64,000 nt of DNA from an uncultured Pirellulales bacterium. GTDB lineage: Bacteria > Planctomycetota > Phycisphaerae > Sedimentisphaerales > SM23-30. Made by a program: the position numbers and the translations under genes. The stretch is taken from assembly GCA_964580995.1 (NCBI GenBank), contig CAZOMV010000007.1:11096-75095 (forward strand). Direction: 5' to 3'. Below, piece by piece: positions 5,675 to 49,600 of this stretch. The notes under the pieces are model-generated. The model did no database searches. It was not told the origin of the DNA and was given only the letters and a program-made list of their open reading frames with translations. Numbering within the stretch: the first letter of the stretch is position 1; the number at the start of each line of letters is the position of its first letter.

Positions 5675-8113
5675 TTATAAAAAACCTTTCGCGACGTTTT
5701 GTTTTTTGCTGGTCCCAGTCAGCGTCAAGAGGGTGTGGATGACGACGAGGACCGCCAGAGCTATCGTAGTGTACTGGTGCGTATGATAGAGGAAGAACTG
5801 GCCGGTGGTGCCGAAGAGGTTGAACATGCTCAGGACGCTGGAGAGCATGACGGGCAGGGCCAGCAGGCCGATCAGCCAGAAACAAAGTTTCCGGAGCGGA
5901 CAAACGGAGGTGGCGGCCAGGAACCGGCTGGGATGCGCTCCCAGCAGGATCAGCAGGGCCAGACAGATCATGAAGGGCGGGGCGATGGTGCAGTGGAGCA
6001 TGAGGAGATAGCCGGTCATGGGTTTGCCGGTAAGGAAGAAGGCATAGAAGCCGGTGCCGGCCAGGACCAGGAAGCAGAGGAGGCCGGCCAGATAGATCAG
6101 CTTCTTCAGGAAGCCGTACCAGCGGTTGGAGCTGGGGACGGCTGGTTCCGCCGCGGCCATTTTCGAACCGGCGGCCAGGGCGGCCGCGACGGTCAGGCCC
6201 CGGAGGCAGTAGAGCAGCAGAATGGCGGCGATCAGGGCCGAGGCGGCGAAGGCGACCGTTTTCAGCATGGGACGAAATACGAAGGAACTGTTGAAAAGGG
6301 AGACATAGGTTTCGTCCAGAGGAAGGAAGTGAATCATCCTCTTGAACAGGCCGCGGTCGGAAGGCAGGGGGCTGTCGATAGCCAGGGCGGCCTGGTAGAA
6401 GGGAGCGTCGTTGGTGTGGCAGTCGGGACAGCCGCGAACGCCCAGCGATTGCGAGGCCGGCCGGACATCGTGGGCCAGAGGCCAGAGATACGGCTGGGCC
6501 GCTTCGTTTTCCTGTGAAACCAAGGCTCCGGCGTCATCCAACTGGTACATTTTACCGCCGCAAATATACACGGCAGTGCCCTGTACGAACGGCTGGCCTT
6601 TCAGGGTGGTTAGTACCTGGGTAATCATATTTTTGAACCAGGCTTCCTTTTCGGCCGTTTCCGGTTTCGCTACCTCTCCGTCAGCGAGATTTTCTTCCGG
6701 CATTTCCGGCCAGGTAACCGAGGCAGGCAGTTCATAGCCATGTAAGAGAATTTGGCTGGCAACCTGTTTGACCTCTTCGGGAACCAGGGGAACGACCTGG
6801 CCCTCTTTAAGCTGCGCCCAGAAGGCGGGCCACAGCATTTTGTGAGGTGCGATTTTGCCGGGCGGGGAATTGGGATCCACCGGCGGCAGTTCCGCCAAAA
6901 CCGGAGAGAGAATATGGGGCAGGGCATCCGGAGCCTTGTTCACCGTTTGCAGACCCAGGCTGTGCGCCCGGGATGTTTTTACAAAGGCAGCGGCATCGGT
7001 GGGCCAGGGGCCGCTGTGACAGGCCGTGCAGGCGAGCTTTTCAAAATGGACCGTGGGGATACCCACGTGTGTAGGTTTGGGTGAACCGAGCCGGCCGGCA
7101 TCAGGATTCTGAGGTTCATCGCTGCCGAGATGACAGCCTTCGCAGGTCAGGGTGGTAATGGCGGAATTATTATCCGCTCGTTTTTCCCCTTCATACCCGT
7201 GATTGATATTGTGATCGACGGTATTGCGATGGCAATCCACGCAGGCCAGGCCGGCTTTCAGGTGGACATCTTCATCCACATCCGTCCGCTGAGCATGAGT
7301 CTGGCTGGTGGAATGACAGAAATAGCAGCGTTCATTGGGAATAGCACGGGTCAGATGCAACTGAACCTTGTTCTCGCTATTGAAGCGGCTGGCATCGTAC
7401 TGAACGACGGGATAATCCAGGGATCCATCTTCCGGCACCCAGTGATCGGGTAATTTTTTTACCGAGCCGGTCACCCAGGCAAAGCTGCTGGTGGCCGTGT
7501 TGGCCCAGCCGAAATTCTGTTCGGCCAATTGTATGGCACACTGGGCCTGATCGTGGAAGGGTTCGGCATCGTGACAGGCCAGGCAATTGATTTCCATCGT
7601 ACCGGAGACATTCCAGCGGCCGGCAATGGGATCAATCGTTTCGCCGGATGGATCCGCGACACTGCCGCCGGGGAAATGGCGGCTGAAGACCTGGGTGAAA
7701 TCCCAGTCGGACAGCCCTACCTGCTGGGGTTTGTAGGTTCCTTCCCAATTGCGATACGACAAAGGAATCTGGGTGGCGGCGGCACAATCCCAGTAAATCC
7801 AGGGTTCCCCTTTATGGCCGGGATCGATATTTTCCTCGGCCGCATTGAAGTGCCAGCCATGACTGATTTTATCATAATCATGACATCGCCCACAGGTCTG
7901 CTTGGTGGAAAAAGGCCGATCGGAATCAGGGAAAATGGTCCCCGCATCTTTGTCATAGATCTTAATCAGGTGGACCGGCTGAGACAGATTTCCATCACCG
8001 GTATCCCCGATCATGGAGGAAGCACTTTCCTGAGCCGGTAAAGGCAAGGTACAAGCTACAAGGCAGATCACGGCCAGTGCGGTGATCCGGGACACAATAT
8101 TACGTTTTATCAT
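5675..8113 (-). CDS. Heptahaem c-type cytochrome fused to a C-terminal polytopic (cytochrome b-like) membrane domain
   Basis: Seven CxxCH motifs: CGRCH, CLACH, CYFCH, CVDCH, CEGCH, CTACH, CPDCH. There is an N-terminal signal anchor. The last ~200 aa form about 5 hydrophobic helices containing His residues. I prefer ATG 8113 (GGGAG 7 nt upstream) over ATG 8134. Confidence 0.85.
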   Translation of the reverse strand: MIKRNIVSRITALAVICLVACTLPLPAQESASSMIGDTGDGNLSQPVHLIKIYDKDAGTIFPDSDRPFSTKQTCGRCHDYDKISHGWHFNAAEENIDPGHKGEPWIYWDCAAATQIPLSYRNWEGTYKPQQVGLSDWDFTQVFSRHFPGGSVADPSGETIDPIAGRWNVSGTMEINCLACHDAEPFHDQAQCAIQLAEQNFGWANTATSSFAWVTGSVKKLPDHWVPEDGSLDYPVVQYDASRFNSENKVQLHLTRAIPNERCYFCHSTSQTHAQRTDVDEDVHLKAGLACVDCHRNTVDHNINHGYEGEKRADNNSAITTLTCEGCHLGSDEPQNPDAGRLGSPKPTHVGIPTVHFEKLACTACHSGPWPTDAAAFVKTSRAHSLGLQTVNKAPDALPHILSPVLAELPPVDPNSPPGKIAPHKMLWPAFWAQLKEGQVVPLVPEEVKQVASQILLHGYELPASVTWPEMPEENLADGEVAKPETAEKEAWFKNMITQVLTTLKGQPFVQGTAVYICGGKMYQLDDAGALVSQENEAAQPYLWPLAHDVRPASQSLGVRGCPDCHTNDAPFYQAALAIDSPLPSDRGLFKRMIHFLPLDETYVSLFNSSFVFRPMLKTVAFAASALIAAILLLYCLRGLTVAAALAAGSKMAAAEPAVPSSNRWYGFLKKLIYLAGLLCFLVLAGTGFYAFFLTGKPMTGYLLMLHCTIAPPFMICLALLILLGAHPSRFLAATSVCPLRKLCFWLIGLLALPVMLSSVLSMFNLFGTTGQFFLYHTHQYTTIALAVLVVIHTLLTLTGTSKKQNVAKGFL

Positions 8114-35667: not shown

Positions 35668-38505
35668 ATGACGGAACATTATATACAGATACGCGGGGCG
35701 AAAGAGCACAATCTCAAGTCGGTGGATGTGGCGATCCCGCGCGATCAACTGGTGGTGATTACGGGCCTGAGCGGCTCGGGCAAGAGTTCGCTGGCCTTCG
35801 ATACGATCTACGCGGAGGGCCAGCGGAAGTATGTGGAGTCGCTGTCGGCGTATGCCCGCCAGTTTCTGGAGCAGATGCAGAAGCCCGACATCGAAAGCAT
35901 CGAAGGGCTGCCGCCCACCATTGCCATCGATCAGCGCGGCGGCGGCCACAATCCCCGCTCGACGGTGGCGACCACGACGGAGATTTACGATTACCTGCGG
36001 CTGCTGTTTGCCCGGGTCGGCAAGCCGCACTGCTGCATTTGCGGCAAGCCGATCCAGACCCAGCACGCCGGGCAGATTACCGATGCCCTGCTGGCGGAGC
36101 CGGAAGGGACGCGGGTGCAGATCTGTGCCCCGCTGATTCGCGGCCAGAAGGGCGAGCACAGCGACGTTCTCAAACGGATACAGCGGGAGGGATTTATCCG
36201 CGCGCGGGTGGACGGCCAGTTGTACGATGTGAAGGATATCCCCGCGCTGGACCGCAAGCGGGCGCATAGCATCGAGGCGGTGGTGGACCGGCTGGTTTTG
36301 AAGCCGGCGATCCGGCCGCGGCTGGCGGATTCGGTGGAGATTGCCCTGAAGCTGGGCGAGGGGCTGCTGCTGGTGCTGAAGGAGGCTAAGGCGGGTGTCT
36401 GGGAGGAGGTCTATTACAGTGAAAATTATGTCTGTCTGGATCATCCGGAAGTATCCATGCCGGAGCTCTCGCCGCGCTGTTTCAGCTTCAACAGTCCCTA
36501 CGGGGCCTGCCGCAGTTGCGACGGGCTGGGGACGATCCTGGAATTTGACCCGGATTTGATTGTGCCGGATCCGAATGTCTCGCTGACGGAAGGGGCCATC
36601 GACGCCTGGCGCAAGGGCGGCAAACGGATGAACATCTTTTACAATCGCCTGATTCGCCGTTTCTGCCGGGAGTATGATATCAGCCCGGATACGCCGTTTA
36701 AGAATATCCCGGCGGCGGTCCGCAAAATTCTGCTCTACGGCAGCGGGGAGGGTGAGGACGGTGTGGGTTTTGAAGGGGTCATTCCGAATCTGACCCGGCG
36801 TTTTCAGAACACCGACAGCGAGTTCGTCAAGGCCCGACTGCACGGGTTTTTGTCGGAGCATCCCTGCCGGGACTGCAACGGGGCGCGGCTGCGGCCGGAA
36901 TCGCTGGCGGTGCTGATTAACGGCAAGAATATTTGGGATATTACCCAGATGAGCATCACCGAAGCCCATGCGTTTTTTGCGAATATCGAATTATCCCCGC
37001 AGGATCAGGAGATTGCCCGGCTGATTTTGAAGGAAGTGCGGCATCGGCTGGAGTTCATGCTGAATGTGGGCCTGGACTATCTGACGCTCAACCGGATCAG
37101 CGGCACGCTCTCCGGCGGCGAGGCCCAGCGGATTCGGCTGGCGACGCAGGTGGGTTCCGCGCTGGTGGGGGTGTGCTACGTGCTGGATGAACCCTCCATC
37201 GGGCTGCATCACCGCGACAATCAGCGGCTGATCCGGACCATGCGGCATTTGACGGACCTGGGCAATACGGTGGTGGTGGTCGAGCATGACGAGGATACCA
37301 TCCGCGCCGCCGATCATGTGATCGACATGGGGCCGGGGGCCGGCGTGCACGGCGGCGAAATTGTGGCCCAGGGGAAAATCGAGGATATTCTCGCCGAACC
37401 CCGCTCACTGACCGGACGCTATTTTTCCGGGGAGCGGCAGATACCACTGCCCGAGAAACGCCGGAAGGTGAATCTCAGCTACTGCCTGCAGGTGGCCGGC
37501 GCCCAGCAGAACAATCTGAAAGACATTGACGTGAAGTTTCCGCTGGGAGTGTTTGTGTGTGTGACGGGGGTGAGCGGTTCGGGCAAGAGTTCGCTGGTGA
37601 ATCAGGTGCTGCTGCCGGCGGTGCGGCGGAAACTGTATAACGGGCGGGAAAAGCAGGGCAAATTCCAGAAGCTGCTGGGGACCAGCCGCATCGACAAGGT
37701 CATCCAGATCGACCAGAGCCCCATCGGCCGCACGCCCCGCTCCAACCCGGCCACCTATACCGGGGTCTTCGATCTGATCCGCCAACTGTTCAGCAAGACC
37801 CGCGAGGCGAAGATCCGCGGCTACACGCCCGGCCGCTTCAGCTTTAACGTAAAAGGGGGACGGTGTGAATATTGCCAGGGCCAGGGAACGCGCAAAATCG
37901 AGATGCACTTTTTGCCCGATGTGTATGTGGTGTGCGATCAGTGCAAGGGAACCCGCTACAACCGCGAAACGCTGGAGATCAAATACCGCGGCAAAAACAT
38001 CGCCGATGTGCTGGACATGCACGTCGAAGAATCGCTGAGCTTCTTCGAAAATTTCCCCAAAATAAAACAGATGCTGCGGACCCTCTACGACGTGGGGCTG
38101 GGGTACATGACGCTGGGGCAGGCCTCCACCACCCTCAGCGGCGGCGAGGCCCAGCGGGTCAAACTGGCCACCGAACTGGGCAAGGCCAGCACCGGCCATA
38201 CCCTCTACGTGCTGGATGAGCCGACCACCGGCCTGCATATCGCCGACATTCACAACCTGCTCACGGTCCTGAACCAACTGGTCGAGATGGGCAATACCGT
38301 CATCGTCATCGAGCACAATCTGGACGTGATTAAAATGGCCGATTATATCATCGACCTGGGACCCGAAGGCGGCGAGGGCGGCGGGCAGATCGTCGCCGCC
38401 GGCAGCCCGGAAGAAATCAGCCGGATGGCGCAAAGCTTTACGGGACAGTTTTTAATAAGCAAACTCCGGCCTGAAGACCGGGAAAAAACGAAAAAAAATA
38501 AATGA
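35668..38505 (+). CDS. uvrA: Excinuclease ABC subunit A
   Basis: 945 aa beginning IQIRGAKEHNLKSVDVAIPRDQLVVITGLSGSGKSSLAFDTIYAEGQRKYVESLSAYARQFL. It has two ABC modules (LSGGEAQR twice), zinc-finger Cys clusters, and YVLDEPTTGLH. Confidence 0.98.
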   Translation: MTEHYIQIRGAKEHNLKSVDVAIPRDQLVVITGLSGSGKSSLAFDTIYAEGQRKYVESLSAYARQFLEQMQKPDIESIEGLPPTIAIDQRGGGHNPRSTVATTTEIYDYLRLLFARVGKPHCCICGKPIQTQHAGQITDALLAEPEGTRVQICAPLIRGQKGEHSDVLKRIQREGFIRARVDGQLYDVKDIPALDRKRAHSIEAVVDRLVLKPAIRPRLADSVEIALKLGEGLLLVLKEAKAGVWEEVYYSENYVCLDHPEVSMPELSPRCFSFNSPYGACRSCDGLGTILEFDPDLIVPDPNVSLTEGAIDAWRKGGKRMNIFYNRLIRRFCREYDISPDTPFKNIPAAVRKILLYGSGEGEDGVGFEGVIPNLTRRFQNTDSEFVKARLHGFLSEHPCRDCNGARLRPESLAVLINGKNIWDITQMSITEAHAFFANIELSPQDQEIARLILKEVRHRLEFMLNVGLDYLTLNRISGTLSGGEAQRIRLATQVGSALVGVCYVLDEPSIGLHHRDNQRLIRTMRHLTDLGNTVVVVEHDEDTIRAADHVIDMGPGAGVHGGEIVAQGKIEDILAEPRSLTGRYFSGERQIPLPEKRRKVNLSYCLQVAGAQQNNLKDIDVKFPLGVFVCVTGVSGSGKSSLVNQVLLPAVRRKLYNGREKQGKFQKLLGTSRIDKVIQIDQSPIGRTPRSNPATYTGVFDLIRQLFSKTREAKIRGYTPGRFSFNVKGGRCEYCQGQGTRKIEMHFLPDVYVVCDQCKGTRYNRETLEIKYRGKNIADVLDMHVEESLSFFENFPKIKQMLRTLYDVGLGYMTLGQASTTLSGGEAQRVKLATELGKASTGHTLYVLDEPTTGLHIADIHNLLTVLNQLVEMGNTVIVIEHNLDVIKMADYIIDLGPEGGEGGGQIVAAGSPEEISRMAQSFTGQFLISKLRPEDREKTKKNK

Positions 38506-38587
38506 TCGCCAAATTTATTTGTGCGATTGCGTTTTCTTCCTTACTGGTAAATCGGTGAATCAAAGGCAAGAGGCTCTTTTCTTACTC

Positions 38588-39379
38588 CTATTTTAGCGCC
38601 TCCTTCATCCTGCCGATAAACCGCGCCAGCTCCCCCCGCCCGTGATCCGCCGCCGCCAGATTCTCCTCGATAATCTTCACCACCGCCGAGCCGACAATCA
38701 CCCCGTCCGCCCCCGCCGCCGCCAGCTCCCGGCCATGCTCCGGCTTGCTCACCCCGAACCCCACGCACACCGGCACCGCCGTCATCCCCTTCAGCGACCG
38801 GATCAGCGGCACCACCGCGCTGCCCAGCTCGCTCCGCGCCCCCGTCACTCCCATCGTCGAAACCGTATAAATAAACCCGCTGCACAGCTCCGCGATCCGC
38901 TTCTTCCGCCCCTGGCTGGTATTGGGTGTCACCATATACACCGAGTCCAAGCCATTCGCCTGCCGCAACCCCTCCACCTCCTCCGCGTCATCAATGCACA
39001 AATCCGCCACCAGCACGCTGTTCACCCCCGCCTGCGCCGCCGCCCGGTAAAACCGCTCCCGCCCGTACTTGCAGATCAGGTTATAATACATCAGCAGCCC
39101 CACCGGAATATCCCGGTACGCCTTCACCCGCCCGATCAGCTCGAACGCCTTATCGCAATTCATCCCCGCCTCCAGCGCCCGGATATCCGCCTTCTGAATC
39201 GTCGGCCCGTCCGCGATCGGATCGCTGAACGGGATCCCCAGCTCCAGCACATCCGCCCCCGCGTCTATCGCCGCCTTCATCAGCTCCAGCGAAACCTCCG
39301 CCGTCGGGTCCCCCAGCACAAAAAACGGAATCAGCGCCGCTCCCTGCTTCGCCGCAAACACCTCGCGATAACTCTTCAT
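38588..39379 (-). CDS. trpA: Tryptophan synthase alpha chain
   Basis: Sequence [11 protein letters not shown]...[22 protein letters not shown]...VGFGVS. Overlaps the trpB stop (39376-39379). Confidence 0.95.
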
Positions 39380-40569
39380 CGGGCACCTCCTTCAATCGAC
39401 TCCGGCCGGTACTTGATAAACGCATCCACATCCTTGTCCCCGCGCCCGCTCAGGTTAATCACAATCACATCATCCTTCTTAAACTTCCCCGCCTGACTCA
39501 CCACCCATGCCACCGCGTGCGTACTCTCGAACGCCGGGATAATCCCCTCCTTCCGCGTCAAAAACAAAAACACCTCCAGCACCTCCTCATCCGTCGCCCC
39601 CACATACTCCGCCCGCCCGCTATCCTTCAGCATACTATGCTCCGGCCCCACCCCCGGATAATCCAGCCCCGCGCTCACCGAATGCGACTCGATCACCTGC
39701 CCATTCTCGTCCTGCAAAAGATACGACCGCGCCCCGTGCAGCACCCCCACACTGCCCTTCTGCAGCGTCGCCGCGTGCTTGCCCGTCTCCAGCCCATACC
39801 CCGCCGCCTCCACCCCCACCAGCCGCACCCCCTGATCCTCAATAAACCCCGCAAACATCCCAATCGCATTGCTCCCCCCGCCCACGCACGCCGTCACCAC
39901 GCTCGGCAGCCGCCCCAGCTTCTCCAGACACTGCCGCCGCGTCTCATCCCCGATCACCCGCTGAAAATGCCGCACGATCATCGGATACGGATGCGGACCC
40001 GCCGCCGTCCCGAACAGATAAAACGTATCATCCACATGCGCTGTCCAATACCGCAGCGCATCATTAATCGCGTCCTTCAGCGTCCCGCTGGCCCCCGTTA
40101 CCGGCACCACCTCCGCCCCCAGCAGCTTCATCTTCTGCACATTCGGCCGCTGCCGCTCGATATCCGTCACCCCCATGAAAATCTTCACCTCCATCCCCAT
40201 CTTGGCCCCGATCGTCGCCGTCGCCAGCCCGTGCTGCCCCGCCCCCGTCCCGGCGATCAGCTTCTGCTTGCCCATATACTTCGCCAGCAGCCCCTGCCCC
40301 CGCGTATTGTTCCGCTTATGCCCACCCCCGTGCATCAAAACCTCCCGCTTCAAATACCCCTCCGCCCCCACCCGCTCGCTCAGCGCCCCGCTGCGATACA
40401 GCGGCGTCGGCCGGCCCGCATAGTCCGTCAGCAGCTCCCCCAGCTCCCGGCAAAATCCCGCATCCCCGCGATACCGCTCAAACGCCGCCTCCATCTCTTC
40501 CAACGCCGGCATCAGCACCTCCGGCACATAATAACCCCCATACTCACCATATCTTCCTTTACTCTTCAT
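39376..40569 (-). CDS. trpB: Tryptophan synthase beta chain
   Basis: Sequence [13 protein letters not shown]...GRPTPLY...HGGGHKRNN (PLP lysine context)...AGTGAGQHG...GGGSNAIG...[27 protein letters not shown] lies upstream. Confidence 0.95.
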
Positions 40570-40596
40570 AATTTTTCACCTTTCCTGCCTTCACGC

Positions 40597-40636
40597 AAAA
40601 AAAAACCGCCGCCTAACTCTCCATCAGGCCGCGGTT
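40597..40636 (-). terminator. Intrinsic terminator inside the trpB leader (attenuator)
   Basis: Minus-strand RNA reads AACCGCGGCC-UGAUGGAGAGUUA-GGCGGCGGUU. Nine of ten stem pairs form. It runs into a U-tract (9 T in total, plus-strand A-run 40597-40605) that ends 27 nt before the trpB ATG. Confidence 0.7.
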
Positions 40637-40663
40637 ATCTATCTTCTCAATACAAAATGGCTC

Positions 40664-40729
40664 CTATTCCCCGGACCTTTCTGGCCGCTGACCTCGCCAC
40701 CACCACTTCGTATTTCTCACTATTTTCAT
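40664..40729 (-). CDS. trp leader peptide (21 aa, MKIVRNTKWWWRGQRPERSGE) with three consecutive Trp codons
   Basis: My own translation of the minus strand: ATG 40729, TGG TGG TGG at 40697-40705, TAG at 40664-40666. It lies between the promoter and the terminator hairpin. Too short to appear in the ORF track. Confidence 0.65.
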   Translation of the reverse strand: MKIVRNTKWWWRGQRPERSGE

Positions 40730-40765
40730 CTCACCGAATACCTTAAAATACCATTATTTACACCC

Positions 40766-40794
40766 ATTTAACCATATCCCCTCCCCTTTGTCAA
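40766..40794 (-). promoter_or_regulatory. sigma70-type promoter of the trp leader/trpBA (TTGACA-17-TTAAAT)
   Basis: On the minus strand, TTGACA (40789-40794) is followed by a 17-nt spacer and TTAAAT (40766-40771). This sits about 35 nt upstream of the leader ATG. Confidence 0.5.
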
Positions 40795-40933
40795 ATAAAT
40801 TTCATCATTATGCTAATACATTCTGTTTCGTTAAAGCGTTAACTCCAAAATACTTAAATCAAGATAATATCTGCTATTCACCGATTTTTTAGATAACAAC
40901 CAAAGATAATAAATTCAGAATTATATAGGATCT

Positions 40934-41590
40934 CTATTCTTGCCAGGGGAAAGGTTTAATAGTTTCTTGCTTTAAATTTGAGTACTCATCAAACTCTTCC
41001 TTAGTTAATGTATACCATTCATCATAAGGATAACGTCTAAAAAACTGAGCCATTGTTTCTCTAAAATGTTCCGTAGCCATATCATTAAGGCGGCACACAC
41101 GATGTTTTTTCAACGACTCCAAATCAACACGTTTGATACGCAAGATAATACGAAAATCAACTGCTCTCCTATCATTAAAAGAAAATTGTGAATCGGCAGG
41201 CAAATAGAACAATCGCAAGTTGTCATGAGAATGTTTTGTAATTAATGACTGCCACTTTTTGGGTGTACTAGGTGGATCTATACCTAATACATCCAAATAG
41301 TTATCTATTTGACAAAGACAAATATATTCACCTCTCATATTGTCACAATTTTGTGTGATGACAATCGCATCAACCGATTTCATTGGTAAAACTGCTGTAA
41401 CTGCGGTGGAATCCCCGTTCTCGACAAGTAAATCTCGCCACGTTGTTTTACGCAGCAGATCATTTTCATCAATAATAGCCATTGATGAAAGCGAAAAATC
41501 TACACGAGGTACCCCTCGAAAGATATGCCCTTGCCTAATTGGGATTTCAATGTCGATCTTTTCGTAAATCATATTACCCCTAATTATCAT
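40934..41590 (-). CDS. Hypothetical protein (218 aa), third gene of the AT-rich cassette
   Basis: AT-rich ORF that overlaps the upstream gene by 11 nt. The alternative start ATG 41572 has AGGGG 5 nt upstream. Notable motifs are PIRQGHIFRGVP and AIVITQNCDN. No family recognised. Confidence 0.65.
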   Translation of the reverse strand: MIIRGNMIYEKIDIEIPIRQGHIFRGVPRVDFSLSSMAIIDENDLLRKTTWRDLLVENGDSTAVTAVLPMKSVDAIVITQNCDNMRGEYICLCQIDNYLDVLGIDPPSTPKKWQSLITKHSHDNLRLFYLPADSQFSFNDRRAVDFRIILRIKRVDLESLKKHRVCRLNDMATEHFRETMAQFFRRYPYDEWYTLTKEEFDEYSNLKQETIKPFPWQE

Positions 41591-41999
41591 TTTCCCAGAG
41601 GCTTATTAGATATTTGGTTTCCGCATTACGTTCTTCTCTCAATCGTTTTTCAGTTTCAGTCAAAATTCGCAGGGCAAGTGCTCGGGCCTGAGCTAGGCTA
41701 ATAGGTATTCCACTTTGTTTTCGTATTGACCAAACTAAGGATGAAGCCCCGGATCGTCTAAGTTCACTGCGAGGATCAATATAACCAAGAGGAATTGTTG
41801 AAACGGTAATAGCTAAAACCCACTTTCCGATATTCCCACACAAACGAGAGAGTGTAGATTGCGATAAAGCAGTATAATCAACCTTAGGAGATATATCAGA
41901 ATGCATCTCGATTATCGTCTTCTTATCTATATCATTTGTTGTTGCTGTATACGACGTTGAGAACTCATATCTGATTTTGCTATATGTTTGATTATCCAT
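41580..41999 (-). CDS. Hypothetical small protein (139 aa), second gene of the AT-rich cassette
   Basis: ATG 41999 overlaps the upstream stop by 8 nt (ATGGATAA). There is one moderately hydrophobic stretch, GKWVLAITVSTIPLGYI. The C-terminal helix is Arg/Glu-rich. No family recognised. Confidence 0.6.
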   Translation of the reverse strand: MDNQTYSKIRYEFSTSYTATTNDIDKKTIIEMHSDISPKVDYTALSQSTLSRLCGNIGKWVLAITVSTIPLGYIDPRSELRRSGASSLVWSIRKQSGIPISLAQARALALRILTETEKRLREERNAETKYLISLWENDN

Positions 42000-42795
42000 T
42001 TTTTTCCCTAAATGATTCTAAAAGTTCGCCTTTACATAATGTAAAAAACCATTTTTCTGCAATTTCGTGAGCAGATGATATCCATCCATCAAAATCTTTC
42101 TCTTTATTTGGCGTATCATTTTCTTTTGATGATATAGTTGTTTCAAAAATAATTGCTGGTTTGTCCTCTTGGTATCCATTGGCGAAATTTATAATTCCCA
42201 CACCCTTAGGATTTGACAAAGGAATCGTTAAGTTAAGCATTAAACCCGAGGGAACGTTATCCTTTTCAAAATCACCAAAAAGGTCATAATCTATAGACAC
42301 TTTTGTATGCAAATATTTATCCAGAAATGTTATTGGATCAGTCTTTTCTCTATCATACAGTACCGCATTAATGTATCTAAGCTTAACCTCTACTGGCTTG
42401 AAGAGATGAATGTCAGATGGATACGATTCATATATTGCGTGTATCGCTATTTGAATATGTTTTTTAAAAGTGTCCCATTTATAATCTTGAGTTTCATTCA
42501 CTGTAAGAATACCTGGTCCAAGTTGTGATAGTGGCCATCGATCAAAATCTCTACGAAATTGATGTCTTACAACATTTGCGGTCAGTTCTTCTGGAACACG
42601 TGCTGAAGGGAGATCTATTATTTTAGGGTATTTTTCGCGAACATGGTCATAGTAACGCCCTAATGCAATTCGAAATCCAGGATCATGTGGAGGGAGATTA
42701 GGAGATTGTTCCAGTTCCCAATGGAGTTCAAATATGGCTTCAACCAAAGGCTTATTATTAAGTTCACAAGGGGTAGGAATATTATCGCTTAGCAT
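41992..42795 (-). CDS. TIGR04255-like uncharacterised protein (267 aa), first gene of the AT-rich cassette
   Basis: The N-terminus ...ELNNKPLVEAIFELHWE... and the ~270-aa length match my recollection of the TIGR04255 family; this is not verified. GGAG lies 10 nt before ATG 42795. Confidence 0.65.
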   Translation of the reverse strand: MLSDNIPTPCELNNKPLVEAIFELHWELEQSPNLPPHDPGFRIALGRYYDHVREKYPKIIDLPSARVPEELTANVVRHQFRRDFDRWPLSQLGPGILTVNETQDYKWDTFKKHIQIAIHAIYESYPSDIHLFKPVEVKLRYINAVLYDREKTDPITFLDKYLHTKVSIDYDLFGDFEKDNVPSGLMLNLTIPLSNPKGVGIINFANGYQEDKPAIIFETTISSKENDTPNKEKDFDGWISSAHEIAEKWFFTLCKGELLESFREKNG

Positions 42796-43153
42796 ATTCG
42801 AAACTCCAGATTCAATCTATTTCTAGCTGATAATCACTATCATGATTAATAATCGGTCAGACCAGAATATTAAAAACCCAAATTATTATTTATCTTATCA
42901 AACAAACAACTGAATCACCTAATTATTTACACAAAACCTTCGGATATTTTCAGAAACTCAGAAACCATGGAGACAAACCTATAAATTTTAAGTTTAACCG
43001 GATTGTAACCATTTTTCAAACATAATTTTACAGAAAATTTTATCTTTAATTGATAAAGTTCATGCAAATCCCTTATAATAGATATAAATGGAAATTTTCT
43101 TGGTCAATATGATCCCTTCATATAACACCATCTCGTCATTGAAAGCGTCAACC

Positions 43154-43196
43154 ACGGGGGAAACCGGTGTTCCATGCGCCCGAGCCGAACCTGCCT
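43154..43196. repeat. Partial copy (core only) of the ~175-nt intergenic repeat
   Basis: The sequence cacgggggaaaccggtgttccatgcgcccgagccgaacct matches the cores at 45880-45920 and 46455-46495. Confidence 0.7.
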
Positions 43197-43232
43197 GCAA
43201 ATCACAGATTCCTAACAACCAAAAGAGAGCAG

Positions 43233-44132
43233 TTAAGACTGCGAATCAGGCAGAATGGACTCTACGCCTCCGGAAGGCACTTCCGCTTTGGCGGTCCAGA
43301 GGATCGCATTCAGCATCATCCGGCGCAGATCGTCCAACTGCCAATTGCTGTGAAAATGCCCGCCGGTAAAGGCAAAGCCGCGCCCCCCATCCGCACGCTG
43401 CACCGCCCAGGCCACCGTTTGCATATCCGGCTCACCCGGAATTGGCGTGGCAAGAATCGCAGTCACGCGAGGATCATCCGGCAGGAACCGGATATTATAG
43501 TAATATTCCTCTTCGAGTTCGAAGGGCGCCAGCCCCCGCGCGATGGGATGATCCGGTGACGGCAACTGAGTCATGGTTCGGGCAAATTGAATCTTGGAGT
43601 ACCAATTTTTGGGGCCGGTACCATTTTCGTAGTCAAAATAGCCGCCCACCCAGTCCAAAAATTGAGGACCGGCGGTCTGGCTGGGAACAATGATGGAATA
43701 ATGGATCACGACCAGTCCGCAGCCGCGCCGCATCTGTTTTGCGATGCACTGCATCCGGTCATCGACCAGAAACGGATGCCTGGTTAGTTCCCCGTCACTG
43801 CCGTCACTGAACAGGACTATCGTATCAGCATCATTGAGGGTGGCGGCGTCCTCCGGCCAGCCATTGGTATATAGCTCTGTTTTGATGTTACCGGCCTCGG
43901 GCATCCTCTCCAGGCAGGACTGAAAAAGACGCAGGCCTTTTTCATATTCGTGGTCTCCGGGGCCGTGACTTTTTTCTCCCGCCAGAAAGACGACCTTTAC
44001 GGGTTGGTTCATGAGACCGGATTTTGAGCAGCCACAACCGCAAACCACGATCACCGCCCCCCAAAACAGCAACCGTGCGAGATGTCGAATGGAAGTCATC
44101 TGCTGAGGATCCTTTCTGACTACAATTCCCAT
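43233..44132 (-). CDS. ThuA-domain lipoprotein (trehalose-utilisation protein A-like)
   Basis: Lipobox AVIVVCGCGCS. ThuA-like blocks: VVFLAGEKSHGPGDHEY, DADTIVLFSDG, GLVVIHYS, FAFTGGHFHSNW. The start is ATG 44132 (13-nt overlap with the upstream gene) or ATG 44099. Confidence 0.8.
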   Translation of the reverse strand: MGIVVRKDPQQMTSIRHLARLLFWGAVIVVCGCGCSKSGLMNQPVKVVFLAGEKSHGPGDHEYEKGLRLFQSCLERMPEAGNIKTELYTNGWPEDAATLNDADTIVLFSDGSDGELTRHPFLVDDRMQCIAKQMRRGCGLVVIHYSIIVPSQTAGPQFLDWVGGYFDYENGTGPKNWYSKIQFARTMTQLPSPDHPIARGLAPFELEEEYYYNIRFLPDDPRVTAILATPIPGEPDMQTVAWAVQRADGGRGFAFTGGHFHSNWQLDDLRRMMLNAILWTAKAEVPSGGVESILPDSQS

Positions 44133-45556
44133 CCCTGGCGATACTCTGTGTGAAGATACTGATTCGCTTCGGGAACGTTGGTAACCTTCATATTTTTGAC
44201 ATCATAGTGCAACTCAATATTTCTGCCGGTACGGATCGCCACATTGCCCATCTGGCAGATTTCCACATAAGGCCCCGCATAGGCGAAATCATCGCCGGTA
44301 GGAGTCCCATGCTTGCAGGCCTCAATCCACTCCTGGATATGGCCGATGGAACGGGGCAACGTGGGGACCGGGCGTTTATATTCCTGCATTCTGGCTTCCG
44401 GGATCAGGCGCGGGCTGGTACTCCAGCCGCCCACCAGCAATTTTCCCTTGTCCCCAACAAAGAGCACCCCATTCTCTCCCAGGTTGCGGCCCGGCTCCAG
44501 TTCTTCCGACCGCGGCGGCAGCAGGCCGCCATCGTACCAGTGTACTTTGACCGGCGGCATATCTGCCCGCGCGGGAAAGGCATAGTGAATCATGGTCGCA
44601 TGGGGGTACGTTTCGGGATACATTTTACTGTAGCTTGCGGAAACCGTGAAGGACTCACATTGGCCGAGTTTTAAAGACCAATAGACGCAATCCATGTTGT
44701 GAACCATCATGTCGCCGGGAGAGCCGGAGCCAAAATCAAACCAGGGCCGCCAGGCACAGCCCGGCAGGTAGATGGGGTGGAAGGGCCGAGAGGGAGCCGG
44801 TCCCAGCCACAAATCCCAGTCAATGTCATCCGGCACCGGCGGGGTATCCTCCGGGCGAACAGTGGCTTTATACCAGCTATTTTCAAAGAGTAACGGCCGG
44901 TCGGTCCAGACATGCGCCTCCCGCACCGGACCGATCGCTCCATCCCAGATCCATTCATTAATCAAATGGGCATCCTCGCTCGAGTGCCCCTCGGTTCCCA
45001 TTTGCGTGGCCACCTTCGCTACGCGGGCCGCCTCGGTGATCTTCCGCGCCTCGTACACGGTATGGGTCAGCGGTTTTTCGCAGTACACATGTTTGCCCAT
45101 CTTCAGGGCCATCATGGTAATCACCGCGTGGGTATGGTCCGGGGTGGCTATCACCACGGCATCGATATTCTTGTCTTCCTTTTCGAGCATCTTGCGGAAA
45201 TCTTTGTATTTTTTTGCCTGGGGATACTGGGCAAAGGCCAGTGCGGGACTTTCCGAGCCATAATACGTTTCCCCGCGGGCCACCGCATAGTTGGCGGTGG
45301 AGTCGCCGTGTACCACATCGCATAAAGCCACAATATTACCCATGTTTCCCAGCCCCTTGCCCAGCAGTTCACTGCCCCGGCCGCCGATCCCGATGATAGC
45401 GAGATTGGGTTTTTCACTGGGGGGTACCTGGCCGTCACCCCCCAGCACATGCCGGGGAATTATAGTAAACAACGATATCCCCGCCGCACCGCTGCGAATG
45501 AATTGACGCCGGGAAATCTGATGATCCGCGTCCCGTTTGGTTTCACTTGATTCCAT
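44120..45556 (-). CDS. TAT-exported Gfo/Idh/MocA oxidoreductase (ThuB-like partner)
   Basis: TAT signal SRRQFIRSGAAGISLF, Rossmann motif AIIGIGGRG, and block ATPDHTHA...YCEKPL. I prefer ATG 45556 (GGAG 10 nt upstream); position 45571 is TTG. Confidence 0.88.
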   Translation of the reverse strand: MESSETKRDADHQISRRQFIRSGAAGISLFTIIPRHVLGGDGQVPPSEKPNLAIIGIGGRGSELLGKGLGNMGNIVALCDVVHGDSTANYAVARGETYYGSESPALAFAQYPQAKKYKDFRKMLEKEDKNIDAVVIATPDHTHAVITMMALKMGKHVYCEKPLTHTVYEARKITEAARVAKVATQMGTEGHSSEDAHLINEWIWDGAIGPVREAHVWTDRPLLFENSWYKATVRPEDTPPVPDDIDWDLWLGPAPSRPFHPIYLPGCAWRPWFDFGSGSPGDMMVHNMDCVYWSLKLGQCESFTVSASYSKMYPETYPHATMIHYAFPARADMPPVKVHWYDGGLLPPRSEELEPGRNLGENGVLFVGDKGKLLVGGWSTSPRLIPEARMQEYKRPVPTLPRSIGHIQEWIEACKHGTPTGDDFAYAGPYVEICQMGNVAIRTGRNIELHYDVKNMKVTNVPEANQYLHTEYRQGWEL

Positions 45557-45813
45557 AATTACTATCTCCAATAAAGTAAATCAAGCCGATTATCTATATG
45601 TGTATTTCTTCAAATCGCTTAGCAAACCAATCTCTCATGGGCACCAGCCCTGCCGGCTGCCCACTATGCCGATCCTGTTTCGCTGGAACACCTATTTTCC
45701 TCTTTGTGGCTCGCAATGTAAAGACCAAAATAGACAATGGCATAGGCATAATTTGTCCCTCCAGGTTTCCTGCGCAAAGCCCCGTTTTCCCTATATCTCG
45801 CCATCCCTTCGCC

Positions 45814-45987
45814 CTTGCCCAATAACGCAAAAACCGGCGGGATCGCTCCTGCCAGGCAATTCCCGCCTCTTCTCTTTACGGGGGGAAACCGGTGTTCCAT
45901 GCGCCCGAGCCGACCTTCCCATAAACCGTAGAATCCCCCAGCCACCACGAGGCGGTGGGCCTTTATTGACAATCTGAACCATGCACC
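45814..45987. repeat. ~175-nt intergenic repeat, copy A
   Basis: Aligns by eye at roughly 85-90% identity with 46388-46564. Shared blocks: gcccaataacgca, ggcgg.atcgctcctgccaggcaattcccgcc, ggggggaaaccggtgttccatgcgcccga, ccaccacgaggcggtgggcc, gaaccatg.acc. Confidence 0.8.
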
Positions 45988-46162
45988 CCCCATACGTGTA
46001 TCAATAAACATACATACTTTTGCTTGGATTCGGATAACCCAAAAAGGTGTTTTTAACACTGGCATTCCTTTAGAAAACACGATATAATTTATAAATCAGA
46101 TTTTCAAATAGTAAAGTTTTAAATACCTATCGGCGGATAACAGATATTCGACAGGATATAAA

Positions 46163-46399
46163 ATGGACACAAAAAAACTGATTACCATCGCGGAATTTAA
46201 TGAGCCGGTGGTGGCCCATATGGCCCTGGCCAAACTGGAGGCGAACGACATCCCCTGTTATCTGGCCAACGAAAATTTTGCAGCTACTTATCCGCTCTAC
46301 GCAGGTTCGTTTAGCGGAGTCCTATTGCAGGTGGAGCAGGCCGATGTGGAGCGGGCACTGGCGATATTAAACGAAAAAACCGAAGACCCTGCCCAATAA
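46163..46399 (+). CDS. DUF2007-like small protein (putative signal-transducing protein fold)
   Basis: 78 aa: ...ITIAEFNEPVVAHMALAKLEANDIPCYLANE...LLQVEQADVERALAIL. The stop codon lies inside repeat copy B. Confidence 0.65.
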   Translation: MDTKKLITIAEFNEPVVAHMALAKLEANDIPCYLANENFAATYPLYAGSFSGVLLQVEQADVERALAILNEKTEDPAQ

Positions 46400-46564
46400 C
46401 GCAGAAACCGGCGGAATCGCTCCTGCCAGGCAATTCCCGCCTCTTTTCTTCACGGGGGGAAACCGGTGTTCCATGCGCCCGAACCGAACCTTCCTATAAT
46501 CCGTAGAATCCCCCCCTCCACCACGAGGCGGTGGGCCTATTTTAGTCCATCGGAACCATGAACC
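46388..46564. repeat. ~175-nt intergenic repeat, copy B
   Basis: See copy A; same orientation. It sits between the convergent stops of the DUF2007-like gene and the GH78 gene. Confidence 0.8.
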
Positions 46565-46613
46565 GCCCGCCAGGGCCTCCCTGGACATGATTCAGAACCT
46601 TATATTCCTCTTT

Positions 46614-49600
46614 TCATTTTCCGGAATCGCGCACGCGGAAGCTGTATCGCCCCGACGCCACTTCAAACACGGCCATCTCACCATCCATGCGAGCAAATTT
46701 CACCCCCTCCGCCTCGCCAGCCGGCCGGCCGCCTTCCGTAACCATCTCCGCGCTCTCCGCCGGTACATACACCGTCGCCGTGGTATTGGCGGGAACCGTG
46801 ACATCCAACTGGAATTGCCCGTCCGCCATCTTCCACTCACTGCCAATCACTCCGTGGATCGAATCATAACGCGCCTTAACCCATTCCAGCCCCGCGCCAG
46901 GTCGCGGCCGAATCACAAAATGCTTATACCCCGGCTGCTCCTCATCCGGATTGATCCCCGCCAGCTCCCGCCAGACCCATTCGCCCACGGAACCAAACGC
47001 CCAGTGGTTGAAGCAGTTCATGCCGGGATCCTGGAATCCGCGGCCTTTCACATAGCCGTCCCACCTTTCCCAAATCGTGGTCGCGCCCATCTCGACCATG
47101 TATCCCCAGGACGGCACGGTCCGCAGGTTGATCAGCCGCCCCGCCTCATCGTGCCGGCCGTTACGGCTCAACTCCAGCATCATGCGGTGCGTCGTCTGAA
47201 TCCCCGTCGAGGGATGATCCATAAACTTCCGGATACCTTCCACCAGGTGTTCCGTCGCTTTCGGCCGCAAGGCTTCTTCCAGCAGATTGAAGTGTAATGC
47301 CAGGGCATAGCCCGATTGGGTGTCACCCTGGATTCGCCCGTCCGGCAACACATACGCCTGGTTAAACGCCGCCTTGATATCGTCGAACAGCTTGCCGTAC
47401 TCCGCGGCCTCCTCCTTTCGCTCCAGCACGCCGGCCATCTTCGCCACAATCTCGGTCGAATGGGCAAAAAAGGCCGTCGCGAAAATCTCGTTCGGAATGG
47501 CGCTGATGCCGCGGGGATAGCCTTCCAGCACCAGCGTGTCGCCGTTGAGCCAGTCGTTGTAGTCGTTCCCGCGATTCTTCTGCCAGAGTAAGTTCGGGTT
47601 GTTGTTGCGAATAAACTCCACCCAGCGCCGCGCCGACTCGAAATGCTGTTCAACCATCCGCCGGTCGGCATAATTCAGATACATCCGCCAGGGCACAATC
47701 GTGCCCGCATCCCCCCAGGCCGGCACACCCGAGAAGCTCTCATTCGGGTTAGCCACATGCGGAGCAACATCGGGATAGCGGCCGTCATCCGCCTGCGACT
47801 CGCGAATATCGGTCACCCATTTGGTGAAAAAACCGGCCATGTCGCGCTGGAAGAAAGCCGTTTGCGAGAATGCCTGGATGTCGCCCAGCCAGCCCTCGCG
47901 CTCGGTACGTTGGGGGCAATCGGTGGGCACGCTGTGCATGTTGCCCCGCTGCACCCACTCCACACAGTGCATAATCTGGTTGATGAGTTCATTGGAACAG
48001 GAAAACGAGCCGGCCTCCGGCGCCGCGGAATGGAACACCCGGCCGAGGATGGCATCAACGCCCGGTCGGCCAGGCAAACCCGTCACTTCCACGTAGCGGA
48101 AACCATGATAGGTAAAGTGCGGCTCTCTTTCCGCCTCCCCCCCGCCCCAGGTATATTCGTTGACCTGGTCAGCCCCGCGCAGATTGTCGGTGTAAATCGT
48201 GCCGTCGTCATTGAGCATCTCGGCATGACGCACGGTAATTTTGGTGCCCGCCGGCGCATCCGCCTTGAGCCGGCACCACCCCACCATATTCTGCCCCATA
48301 TCGAAAACATAGACACCCGGCTTCGGCTCAGTCATCTTCACGGGCCGCAGCTCCTTCACCACGCGAATCGGCTCGTTACTCTGTGCCACCAGAATCGCCT
48401 TCTCAGCCTCCTCCGGATACGGCAATACCTCAGCAGGCCGCCACCCGGCATCGGCAAAACCCGGCTGGTCCCAGCCGTCTATCTCCTTCGTAGCATCGTA
48501 CGTTTCGCCGAAGTAAATCCCGGCCCGGCGGATCGGCCCATCGGTCGTCGCCTGCCACGACGGATCGGTCACGACCGTCTGCTTCGAACCGTCCGCCAAC
48601 TCAATATCCAGCCGCATCAGCAGACAAAACCGCGGATCCTTCATCGCCGGCTTGGCCATCAGCGGCCCCGTCCACCACCCGCCGCCCAACTGCGCCCCCA
48701 CGGCATTCTTGCCGCTGCCCAGCAAATCAGTAACATCGTAGCTCTGGTACTGAATCCGCCGGCTGTACCGGGTCCACTCCGGCGCCAGTATCCGATCACC
48801 GACTTTCTGGCCATTGATCCGCAGCTCATACAACCCCAAACCGGTCACCGACACCACAGCCCGCTGAATCGGTTGGGCCGCGTCAAATTCCTTACGCAGC
48901 ATGGTCGCCGGCCGCTGACTGCCATCGTCCGCGCCGCCGCCTTCGGCCAGCACCCGGTCATCAACGAGCTTGCCCTTCGCCCAGCCGCCCGACTCAATGG
49001 CATCCAACGCAGTCACCACCGCCCCCTTGGTTACATTCTCCTCACCCGCCAGCACCTGCATCTCCGCCAACGCAAATCCATAGTTCTCCCCGTCGCGATG
49101 GCCCAGCCGATTCACGCTCAGACGCACATACCGCGCCTCCATCGCTTCAAAACGGTAAACCGGCGCCGAAAGGCCCGGATTCGGTACATCCGCGTTAGTC
49201 TGGTCCACAACGGTCTTCGCATCCGAGAAGTCAGCCTTTTGCCCGGCCTCAATCTTATACCGCACGGGAAACAGGAACCCGGGCGTGTCCGGTGCATAAT
49301 CATACGGACGCGCCGGGTAAAGCCCCACACCGTCGATCCTGCGTTCCGCGCCCAGATCAACCGCTACCCATTTGACCGCATCCGCTGACGTCGCCAGCTC
49401 GCTGTGATACCCGTTGTGCGGCGTTAGCGGGGCTTCAGCCGGCGCCGCAATCCACTCAGCCTGCCAATCCGTCGGCTTCAACAACCCCATCGACCAGAAG
49501 GCCGGTTCGCTCGATTCGGATATATTCCCATCCTTGTCCCACACCTGCACCTTCCAGAAACACTCCATCCGGCTTTCCAGCGGCCTGCCCTGATAAACCA

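Follow-up and report, generated by a model that had tools for sequence, protein, structure and literature searches.

Which function is encoded by an AT-rich islet of three small genes that separates trpBA from a ThuA/GFO gene pair in an uncultured Pirellulales bacterium? The window, meaning the whole stretch of 64,000 nucleotides that was analysed (contig CAZOMV010000007.1 of assembly GCA_964580995.1), contains this islet of ~2.3 kb at about 40800-43150. It carries three coupled genes on the minus strand, here called A, B and C. A model that had seen only the letters and the open reading frames (ORFs) had proposed a horizontally acquired module of toxin or defence type (in the following, the original prediction). 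Our data indicate that the islet is probably a horizontally acquired tripartite toxin-antitoxin or abortive-infection-type cassette with the gene order A-B-C, in which a protein of the TIGR04255 family is followed by a putative antitoxin and by a putative toxin with a predicted MazF/CcdB-type fold.

Conservation of the islet as a mobile unit

The base composition sets the islet apart from its surroundings. Windowed GC drops from 0.58-0.68 on both sides to 0.28-0.42 across about 40650-43200, and the module as a whole (GC 0.367) is 22 points lower than its flanks (0.585). The gap is larger still at the third codon position (GC3), with values of 0.23-0.32 for genes A, B and C (overall GC 0.35-0.39) and of 0.62-0.85 for trpB, trpA, ThuA and GFO, which bears out the low-GC stretch that had been claimed. 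According to Pfam, the flanking genes belong to TrpB, TrpA, ThuA, GFO_IDH_MocA, DUF2007, rhamnosidase and UvrA, and the islet is a clean insertion amid housekeeping genes. The three predicted minus-strand ORFs of 267, 139 and 218 amino acids (aa) lie exactly where they had been placed, and the 8-nt overlap of A and B (41992-41999, ATGGATAA) is real.

Three sets of loci were analysed. A scan for relatives of C with one genome per species returned 111 loci, of which the best 80 were kept and combined with two exact look-ups to give 82 genome loci. A metagenome scan for the A family found at least 526 loci, the best 80 of which (37-52% identical to A of the window) were analysed, and viral contigs scanned with an A alignment added 10 further loci, whose TIGR04255 members are distant (23-34% identity). 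In 68/82 genome loci, the three genes share one strand in the order A-B-C. These loci represent about 10 phyla, namely Planctomycetota, Acidobacteriota, Chloroflexota, Nitrospirota, Desulfobacterota, Verrucomicrobiota, Actinomycetota, Myxococcota, Proteobacteria and several candidate phyla. An overlap of 8, 4 or 1 nt joins A and B in 121/151 loci, and B overlaps C-long, as we call the type of C present in the window, by 4 nt in 43/63 loci, with a 7-nt gap in the window itself. With B directly upstream of C and both of them small, co-oriented and coupled, the arrangement is that of a type II toxin-antitoxin system. The flanks are hypervariable, as the 419 ORFs neighbouring the cassettes fall into 372 clusters, and the GC content of the module is below that of its flanks in 51/65 loci (median difference -9.4 points). 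The contrast in GC and GC3 and the presence of the same module in unrelated neighbourhoods across about 10 phyla therefore support horizontal acquisition, as proposed before. The original prediction had also named a trio that falls apart, an embedding in core metabolic operons and a match to a housekeeping function as findings that would speak against it; the trio is conserved, it is not found in core metabolic operons and no housekeeping match was obtained.

The exceptions to the order A-B-C include contig-end truncations and two decayed copies (L025, L081). In a Bryobacterales metagenome-assembled genome (MAG; L010, 4786-7389), the place of A next to intact B and C is taken by two identical ORFs of 389 aa that run in the opposite direction and are presumably copies of an insertion sequence, so that this locus is a natural A-knockout that retains the putative toxin gene. 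The only archaeal homologue of C-long (L049, 6800-8630, Candidatus Methanocrinis) is preceded by two coupled ORFs of 204 and 198 aa, which match neither the hidden Markov models (HMMs) of A and B nor any Pfam family and may represent a different partner set. Four loci of Pyrinomonadaceae/Acidobacteriota (L075, L078, L080, L082) are devoid of A. Here, B is cut to a 63-aa helix plus tail, C is lengthened at its C-terminus by about 170-220 helical aa that lack a Pfam match, and in three of the four loci (L075, L080, L082) the next gene after C encodes a HerA/DUF87 ATPase (566-570 aa); this architecture lies around 8001-9200 in L075 and L082. Besides, two genomes contain two full cassettes each, a Caldilineaceae MAG (L036/L061) and a Planctomycetaceae MAG (L017/L071). 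The identical neighbours of L036 and L061 (ORFs of 113 and 298 aa downstream and of 399 aa upstream) suggest that a larger element was duplicated. On contig L027 of an alphaproteobacterial MAG, a single ORF of 365 aa (183-1280) spans both A and B and is either a natural fusion or an assembly frameshift; if real, the fusion would support a physical association of A and B.

Gene C and its predicted toxin fold

The ORF listed for gene C covers 40934-41590 (218 aa), from which an 11-nt overlap with B (41580-41590) had been deduced. This overlap is not supported and is probably not used. Since all homologues begin with MIYE, with M1 and Y3 invariant, we take the second ATG at 41572 as the true start, which is located 7 nt past the stop codon of B behind an AGGGG Shine-Dalgarno sequence and yields a protein of 212 aa (40934-41572, minus strand). 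The family comprises 91 cluster-level homologues and 530 representatives among 1.84 billion proteins. In an alignment of 63 sequences Q14, G15, Q74, C76, R158, R171, E172 and R180 are invariant, D16, D77 and H169 are each conserved in 62/63, and a K or R often, not invariably, precedes the AIVITQ strand.

The AlphaFold (AF2) model of C has a predicted local distance difference test score (pLDDT) of 92.2, and in a Foldseek search all of the top 50 PDB matches are MazF-type toxins (MazF/EndoA/MoxT). With these targets of about 110 aa, the best E-value is 2e-4 at a probability of 1.00, and the template modelling (TM) score on the target is 0.62-0.74. Going by this predicted model, C would have the SH3-like barrel of the MazF/CcdB type, enlarged by two inserts, a hairpin plus helix behind strand 1 and a helical one behind strand 3, and extended by an aromatic C-terminal segment (FFRRYPYDEWYPL...PFPWQ). 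PADLOC and PHROGs gave no match to C. Thus, the earlier statement that no known defence domain is visible holds at the sequence level (Pfam, PADLOC) but not for the predicted fold, which is MazF/PemK-like. A shorter variant of about 173 aa from other loci, C-short, shares homology with C-long (Prob 96%, E 2e-9 in hhalign), and the two would form a putative MazF/CcdB-fold family with an unfamiliar set of conserved residues. Characteristic features of C are its acidity, the invariant Cys and the near-invariant Asp and His. We do not claim sequence homology of C to MazF, as the profile-profile comparison was not significant; comparison of C-short with MazF/PemK was likewise not significant. Since no sequence relation to MazF/PemK is detectable, the assignment of C as a toxin is based on the predicted fold and on positional analogy.

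Exchange of toxins and the bipartite protein B

Gene B (41580-41999, minus strand) encodes a protein of 139 aa, a putative antitoxin and adaptor. A search of 5.8 billion sequences returned the identical sequence as its sole match, and B has no PADLOC or PHROGs match and no Pfam domain, hence no AbrB, ribbon-helix-helix (RHH) or other recognisable DNA-binding domain. An HMM iterated on the fetched loci recovered its C-terminal core of about 70 aa in 81 loci, and the N-terminal half is variable. The core consists of a borderline-hydrophobic stretch (WVLAITVSTIPLGY), a long Arg/Glu/Ala helix with the pattern GR.ISL.EAR.IAL.IL..AE.ER and an acidic Trp-containing tail, which reads ..WEDE in the family and ..LISLWENDN in the window and which resembles the C-terminus of MazE. 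A reading of B as a membrane protein was not adopted, as its maximum hydropathy (KD19) of 1.3 is under the usual transmembrane threshold and only 18/69 homologues reach 1.6. B evolves much faster than C.

At the third position of the cassette, different toxin families are found. In the best 80 metagenome loci, the third gene encodes C-long, C-short, PemK or PIN, with PemK (PF02452) above the gathering cut-off in L119 (53.5 bits), L154 (53.2) and L162 (38.4) and PIN (PF01850) in L114, L129, L175, L111 and L163. On the viral contigs, two small co-oriented ORFs follow A in 9/10 loci, and in L089 only a PemK ORF was called downstream. Here, the toxin slot holds a canonical PemK/MazF (PF02452) over the gathering score in L089 (60.8 bits) and in L094, L095 and L096 (24-28 bits), and a shorter C-like protein with QGD, [ST]QxC[DE] and EH..F.R[FY]F.R in L098, L090 and L091; no significant PADLOC matches were obtained for these viral-contig cassettes. 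Two further viral cassettes (L092/L093) have second genes of 216/183 aa and third genes of 185/163 aa (7434-7991 and 7031-7522), which fall into no Pfam family and into none of the toxin classes of the other loci; the third genes may be further warhead types.

The exchange is most directly seen in pairs of loci with closely related A and different toxins. Between L114 (PIN) and L151 (C-short), A is 88% identical, the first 50 aa of B are 66% and the last 50 aa 22% identical. The corresponding values are 83%, 42% and 26% for L154 (PemK) and L126 (C-long) and 84%, 28% and 20% for L119 (PemK) and L125 (C-long), and these four PemK and C-long loci occupy one and the same drmD-drmMI slot. The toxin class is thus not tied to A phylogeny. 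In line with this, an HMM of the N-terminal 60 aa of B, built from C-short loci only, matches the B of PIN loci (5e-28 to 5e-13) and the B of a PemK locus (1.5e-17), and what is conserved of B in C-long loci is its C-terminal helix plus tail. B thus shows a bipartite organization, in which the N-terminal module goes with A and the C-terminal part with the toxin. From the swap pairs, the bipartite B and the co-loss of A and the N-terminal half of B in Pyrinomonadaceae, we infer a contact between A and B.

Gene A and its possible roles

Gene A (41992-42795, minus strand, 267 aa) is the conserved first gene, or chassis, of the cassette. Its product belongs to the NCBIfam family TIGR04255 with 119.7 bits at a cut-off of 30 (E 1.8e-34), and residues 12-263 align to profile positions 2-252 of 252, i.e. 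over the full length. The membership had been suggested in the original prediction and is hereby confirmed; the source annotations of A homologues carry the same name. The AF2 model (pLDDT 93.8, pTM 0.91) consists of two tandem S1-H1-S2..S5-H2 repeats, predicted to form a pseudo-dimer like that of the TATA-binding protein (TBP) with its saddle. Foldseek matches TATA-binding proteins in the PDB (probability 0.97, E about 7e-4, TM only 0.26-0.36) and, in BFVD, the TBP-like part of VETF-L factors of nucleocytoplasmic large DNA viruses (NCLDV, giant viruses). A has no Pfam match, SecB included, no PADLOC or PHROGs match and no PDB sequence match in single or profile searches, and SecB, RnlA and RNase H3 are absent from its top 50 structural matches. 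Of 161 family members, 94% are acidic and the median net charge is -7, so that protein binding is favoured over nucleic acid binding, and A is unlikely to bind nucleic acid.

Omega-epsilon-zeta and paaR-paaA-parE are three-component toxin-antitoxin operons in which the regulator gene comes first. A is also the first gene of its operon, and could be a transcriptional autoregulator of the omega or PaaR-like kind that places its TBP-like saddle on operator DNA and leaves B and C as an ordinary antitoxin-toxin pair. Such a role would agree with the TBP-like fold, with the AT-rich repeats in the leader and with the absence of a recognisable DNA-binding domain from B, which A would then supply. It is at odds with the acidity of A, which is unlike DNA-binding TBP, and no convincing operator palindrome is present. 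Moreover, the N-terminal module of B goes along with A whichever toxin class is present, and it is lost when A is absent, which points to a protein contact between A and B. We consider a regulator role of A not very likely.

TBP-like domains also bind substrate in RnlA (PMC8266594), and the TBP-like domain at RNase H3's N-terminus binds RNA/DNA hybrids (PMC3710099). Following these examples, A might be the nucleic-acid-binding targeting subunit of a split ribonuclease, with C as the catalytic subunit and B as the inhibitor. Its tandem TBP-like domains would recruit substrate RNA or an RNA-DNA hybrid for C, in the way of TBP1 and TBP2 in the anti-phage toxin RnlA/LsoA and in RNase H3. The two TBP-like repeats of A and the RNase-toxin fold predicted for C are compatible with such an enzyme, but both A and C-long are acidic, MazF catalytic residues are not evident in C, and neither RnlA nor RNase H3 is among the top structural matches of A. 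In addition, the toxins paired with A (PIN, PemK, C-type) differ in mechanism, which points to a generic role exerted via B instead of a substrate-specific one. A split ribonuclease is a decidedly unlikely explanation; the acidity of A and its pairing with several toxin classes count against the regulator role as well.

Association with defence systems

Where the cassettes have recurring neighbours at all, these are defence genes. In defence island systems associated with restriction-modification (DISARM), the cassette is inserted between the SNF2/NOV_C helicase (DrmD) and the DUF1156 methylase (DrmMI), with DUF499 (DrmA) beyond. This slot is occupied in two genome loci (L026, L043; L042 has the same genes in a different order) and in the metagenome loci L119, L125, L126, L140, L147, L149 and L154, and only DrmD is visible in L173, L128 and L143. 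In type 1 bacteriophage exclusion (BREX) systems with DUF6079 (BrxC), the PglX methylase and PglZ, the slot is between pglX and pglZ (L040, L044, L067, L068, L113, L115). The cassettes embedded in DISARM and BREX are on the same strand as the host operon. Eco57I/MmeI-type methylases are located directly upstream of the cassette in L014, L018 and L050, type I hsdRMS genes adjoin it in L083/L084, as components of a restriction-modification (R-M) system, and on the Bryobacteraceae contigs L085-L088 the cassette is also part of an element that bears an integrase and an excisionase.

Since most loci, the window included, are stand-alone, we reject the idea that the cassette is an integral part of BREX or DISARM as a general rule; like most copies, that of the window belongs to the class of solitary islets. 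The toxin-type or defence-like character that had been suggested for the islet is strengthened by the predicted MazF/PemK-like fold, by the PemK and PIN toxins of the sister cassettes and by those cassettes that sit within DISARM, BREX or type I R-M loci.

A proposed mode of action

Based on these data, C would be the effector, a toxin built on a MazF/CcdB-type barrel. The C-terminal helix and the acidic Trp tail of B may neutralise C by direct binding, as antitoxin C-termini do for MazF, and the N-terminal part of B would dock onto A. The most likely role of A would be to hold or stabilise B, thereby to control its availability and to time the release of C, much like the SecB-like chaperone of toxin-antitoxin-chaperone systems, which lets go of the antitoxin on encountering a phage protein. 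In such a scheme, A would serve as sensor or stabiliser, and the module would act in abortive infection or addiction, either alone or as a second line inside BREX, DISARM or R-M operons, with a presumed anti-phage function.

Several observations weigh against this assignment. C has no Pfam match at E<=1, so that PF02452 is not detected, and no PDB sequence match in single or profile searches. With hhalign, the comparison of C with four MazF/Kid sequences and with nine PemK proteins of sister cassettes gave a Prob of 0.2% in either case. The catalytic Arg/Thr pair of MazF has no evident counterpart in C, as far as the alignment shows, and the acidity of C-long (median net charge -5) is uncommon for an RNase. 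Among 63 sequences, C of the window is the only one with D16H, i.e. with a replaced Asp of the QGD motif (codon 41525-41527); its closest relatives (68% identity) keep Asp16, and the copy of the window may be an attenuated or inactivated toxin. As for A, the match to the TBP fold is weak in TM-score, and A is not SecB-like. The proposed A-B contact is deduced from co-variation, and over all loci the identity of A correlates no better with that of the N-terminal half of B (rho 0.20) than with that of the C-terminal half (0.19). With so low a rank correlation over all loci, which fails to tell the two halves apart, the specific swap pairs serve as evidence. Finally, defence neighbours were found in only about 16/82 genome loci (plus looked-up contigs) and 14/80 metagenome loci. 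For the remaining 66 genome loci, most of the 141 nearest neighbours are unrelated housekeeping genes, and the others include RhuM, three integrases and transposases of the IS66 and ISL3 types. No member of the C family occurs in the PLSDB, INPHARED and IMG/VR collections, and A, like C, had no tblastn match among the plasmids of PLSDB or the phages of INPHARED.

Some of these points, namely the lack of a sequence link between C and MazF, the D16H exchange, the housekeeping flanks at most loci and the plasmid and phage collections without matches, would also fit a mobile accessory operon that is no toxin system at all and deals with regulation, stress response or small-molecule binding. The barrel of C would then be coincidental or non-toxic, and the copy in the window possibly a decaying remnant. 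We give this explanation little credit: near-identical A proteins head sister cassettes with bona fide PemK and PIN toxins, and the embedding on the same strand within DISARM and BREX operons is repeated. None of the three ORFs is disrupted, a constellation of polar residues is strongly conserved in the C family, and a fast-evolving middle gene together with tight coupling is typical of toxin-antitoxin modules.

Beyond the tripartite toxin-antitoxin cassette itself, we tentatively consider a wider model, which we hold to be possible but doubtful. TIGR04255 may define a large and hitherto undescribed class of immunity modules that combine a chassis with a swappable warhead, in which an acidic TBP-fold sensor clamps the N-terminus of the antitoxin until a phage frees the PIN, PemK or C-type toxin. 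The cassettes embedded in DISARM, BREX and hsd loci could be PrrC-like guards that fire when the host system is inhibited. C-long and C-short would then stand for a new toxin chemistry on a MazF/CcdB scaffold, in which QGD, [ST]QxC[DE] and EH possibly form a Cys-His-Asp-type site and not the MazF RNase site.

Leader, edges and neighbouring features

Upstream of gene A lies a non-coding leader (42796-43155, minus strand; GC 0.28-0.36), in which promoter and operator are presumed. The GGAG motif in front of the ATG at 42795 is present, with a spacing of 8 nt instead of the 10 nt given before. An inverted repeat had also been pointed out in the leader; it exists as a weak and short repeat (TTAATCA..TGATTAT, about 42830-42849) that, according to a repeat listing, does not stand out among the many AT-rich repeats there. 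Sigma-70-like promoter matches in the leader are not above those in shuffled sequence, and no operator or promoter candidate exceeded chance. Besides, a perfect tandem 8-mer (TCAGAAAC, two copies) is located at 42950-42965, either a possible pair of operator half-sites or a chance occurrence.

The islet is bounded by the trpBA leader on the trp side and by a truncated copy of a local repeat on the other side. This truncated copy (43156-43212, plus strand), which had already been noted at the far end of the leader, was recovered in a repeat search. The repeat family has three plus-strand copies in the window with a common 28-mer, for which 0 occurrences are expected by chance. The fuller copies (45813-45967 and 46387-46543) are about 110-155 nt long, 88-92% identical and lie on either side of the DUF2007 gene. 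The truncated copy directly adjoins the islet at its upstream edge, which suggests that the islet was inserted within or beside a repeat copy. At the opposite end, an AT-rich 3' tail (40800-40933, minus strand) extends from the stop codon of C to the promoter and leader of the host trpBA genes.

Next to this tail, a classic Trp attenuator is located upstream of trpB (40595-40795, minus strand). A promoter-like TTGACA-N17-TTAAAT is present at about 40760-40795, and the host trp leader starts at about 40795. A leader ORF (40664-40729, MKIVRNTKWWWRGQRPERSGE) contains three consecutive Trp codons. It is followed on its 3' side by a structured RNA (minimum free energy -46.8 kcal/mol, z = -5.2), which ends in a GC hairpin plus U9 just ahead of the trpB ATG at 40569. 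An Rfam search of 38000-47000 gave nothing credible, and no Rfam family matched the trp attenuator.

Novelty and significance

For A, B and C, no HMM match at E<=1 was found in PADLOC-DB v2.0.0, with catalogues released up to 2023 being covered. A full-text search of the accessible library retrieved no paper that mentions TIGR04255, and in the literature on BREX, DISARM, MazF and tripartite MazF systems we found no description of the cassette. Tripartite toxin-antitoxin systems are a known kind, and what appear to be undescribed are the TIGR04255 cassette family, its third component and the C-type toxins. The islet had been expected to be of a new type if it acts in defence; rather than a wholly new type, a new tripartite variation on toxin-antitoxin systems describes it better.

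If our reading is true, TIGR04255 would receive its first functional context as a conserved third component of toxin-antitoxin cassettes, with at least 526 metagenome loci, and a design of toxin, antitoxin and third protein would exist that is evolutionarily independent of the SecB-type systems. It would also account for a recurrent unannotated three-gene insert in DISARM and BREX operons and bear on the question of back-up in layered defence. The natural toxin-swap pairs, with A proteins that are 83-88% identical and toxins of different families, offer material for studying sensing and firing. For genome annotation, it is relevant that the genes are labelled "hypothetical" or "TIGR04255 family" and are missed by Pfam and PADLOC v2.

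Comparison with known systems

The closest parallel in design is the toxin-antitoxin-chaperone (TAC) system. In TAC, a SecB-like chaperone binds the chaperone addiction segment (ChAD) of the antitoxin, phage structural proteins compete for the chaperone, which makes it the sensor, and chaperone and toxin-antitoxin warhead are recombinable (bioRxiv 10.1101/2024.02.24.581848; PMC11618068). Like HigBAC, CmdTAC and the TAC of Mycobacterium tuberculosis, the cassette has three genes, a third protein that is common to different toxin families and interchangeable warheads, as A proteins of up to 88% identity occur with PIN, PemK, C-short and C-long. An extra antitoxin segment for the third protein also appears in both, the ChAD in TAC and the N-terminal module of B here. 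In contrast to TAC, A is a 260-aa TBP-fold TIGR04255 protein and not a SecB-like chaperone, and TAC is therefore an analogy and not a homologous family to which the cassette belongs. A is furthermore encoded first, whereas the third component of TAC comes last, and the putative docking segment is N-terminal in B and C-terminal in the TAC antitoxin. The documented anti-phage role is that of TAC; the cassette described here is known from its genes and predicted models.

With MazEF, PemIK (Kis-Kid) and CcdAB, the cassette shares the predicted barrel of C, a small, translationally coupled partner encoded upstream and, in sister cassettes, a true PemK. It differs from them in that C has neither a PF02452 match nor a profile-profile signal, is twice the size with its inserts and C-terminal extension, and carries QGD, TQxCD, EH and RR as conserved residues. 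B is without AbrB or RHH, and gene A is an additional, obligatory gene here. RnlAB and LsoAB likewise combine TBP-like domains, an RNase-type toxin and a protein antitoxin in an anti-phage context. The TBP-like domains of RnlA are, however, fused to a HEPN nuclease, whereas A is separate and acidic and the putative toxin has a predicted MazF-type fold. The systems share no sequence similarity and do not appear among the top structural matches, and neither HEPN nor another Pfam domain was found in A, B or C.

As suicide-type modules within restriction loci, PrrC (PMC3710099) and RloC resemble those cassettes that are inserted on the same strand in restriction, BREX or DISARM operons. The proteins are unrelated, and most copies of the cassette, including that of the window, do not lie beside such systems.

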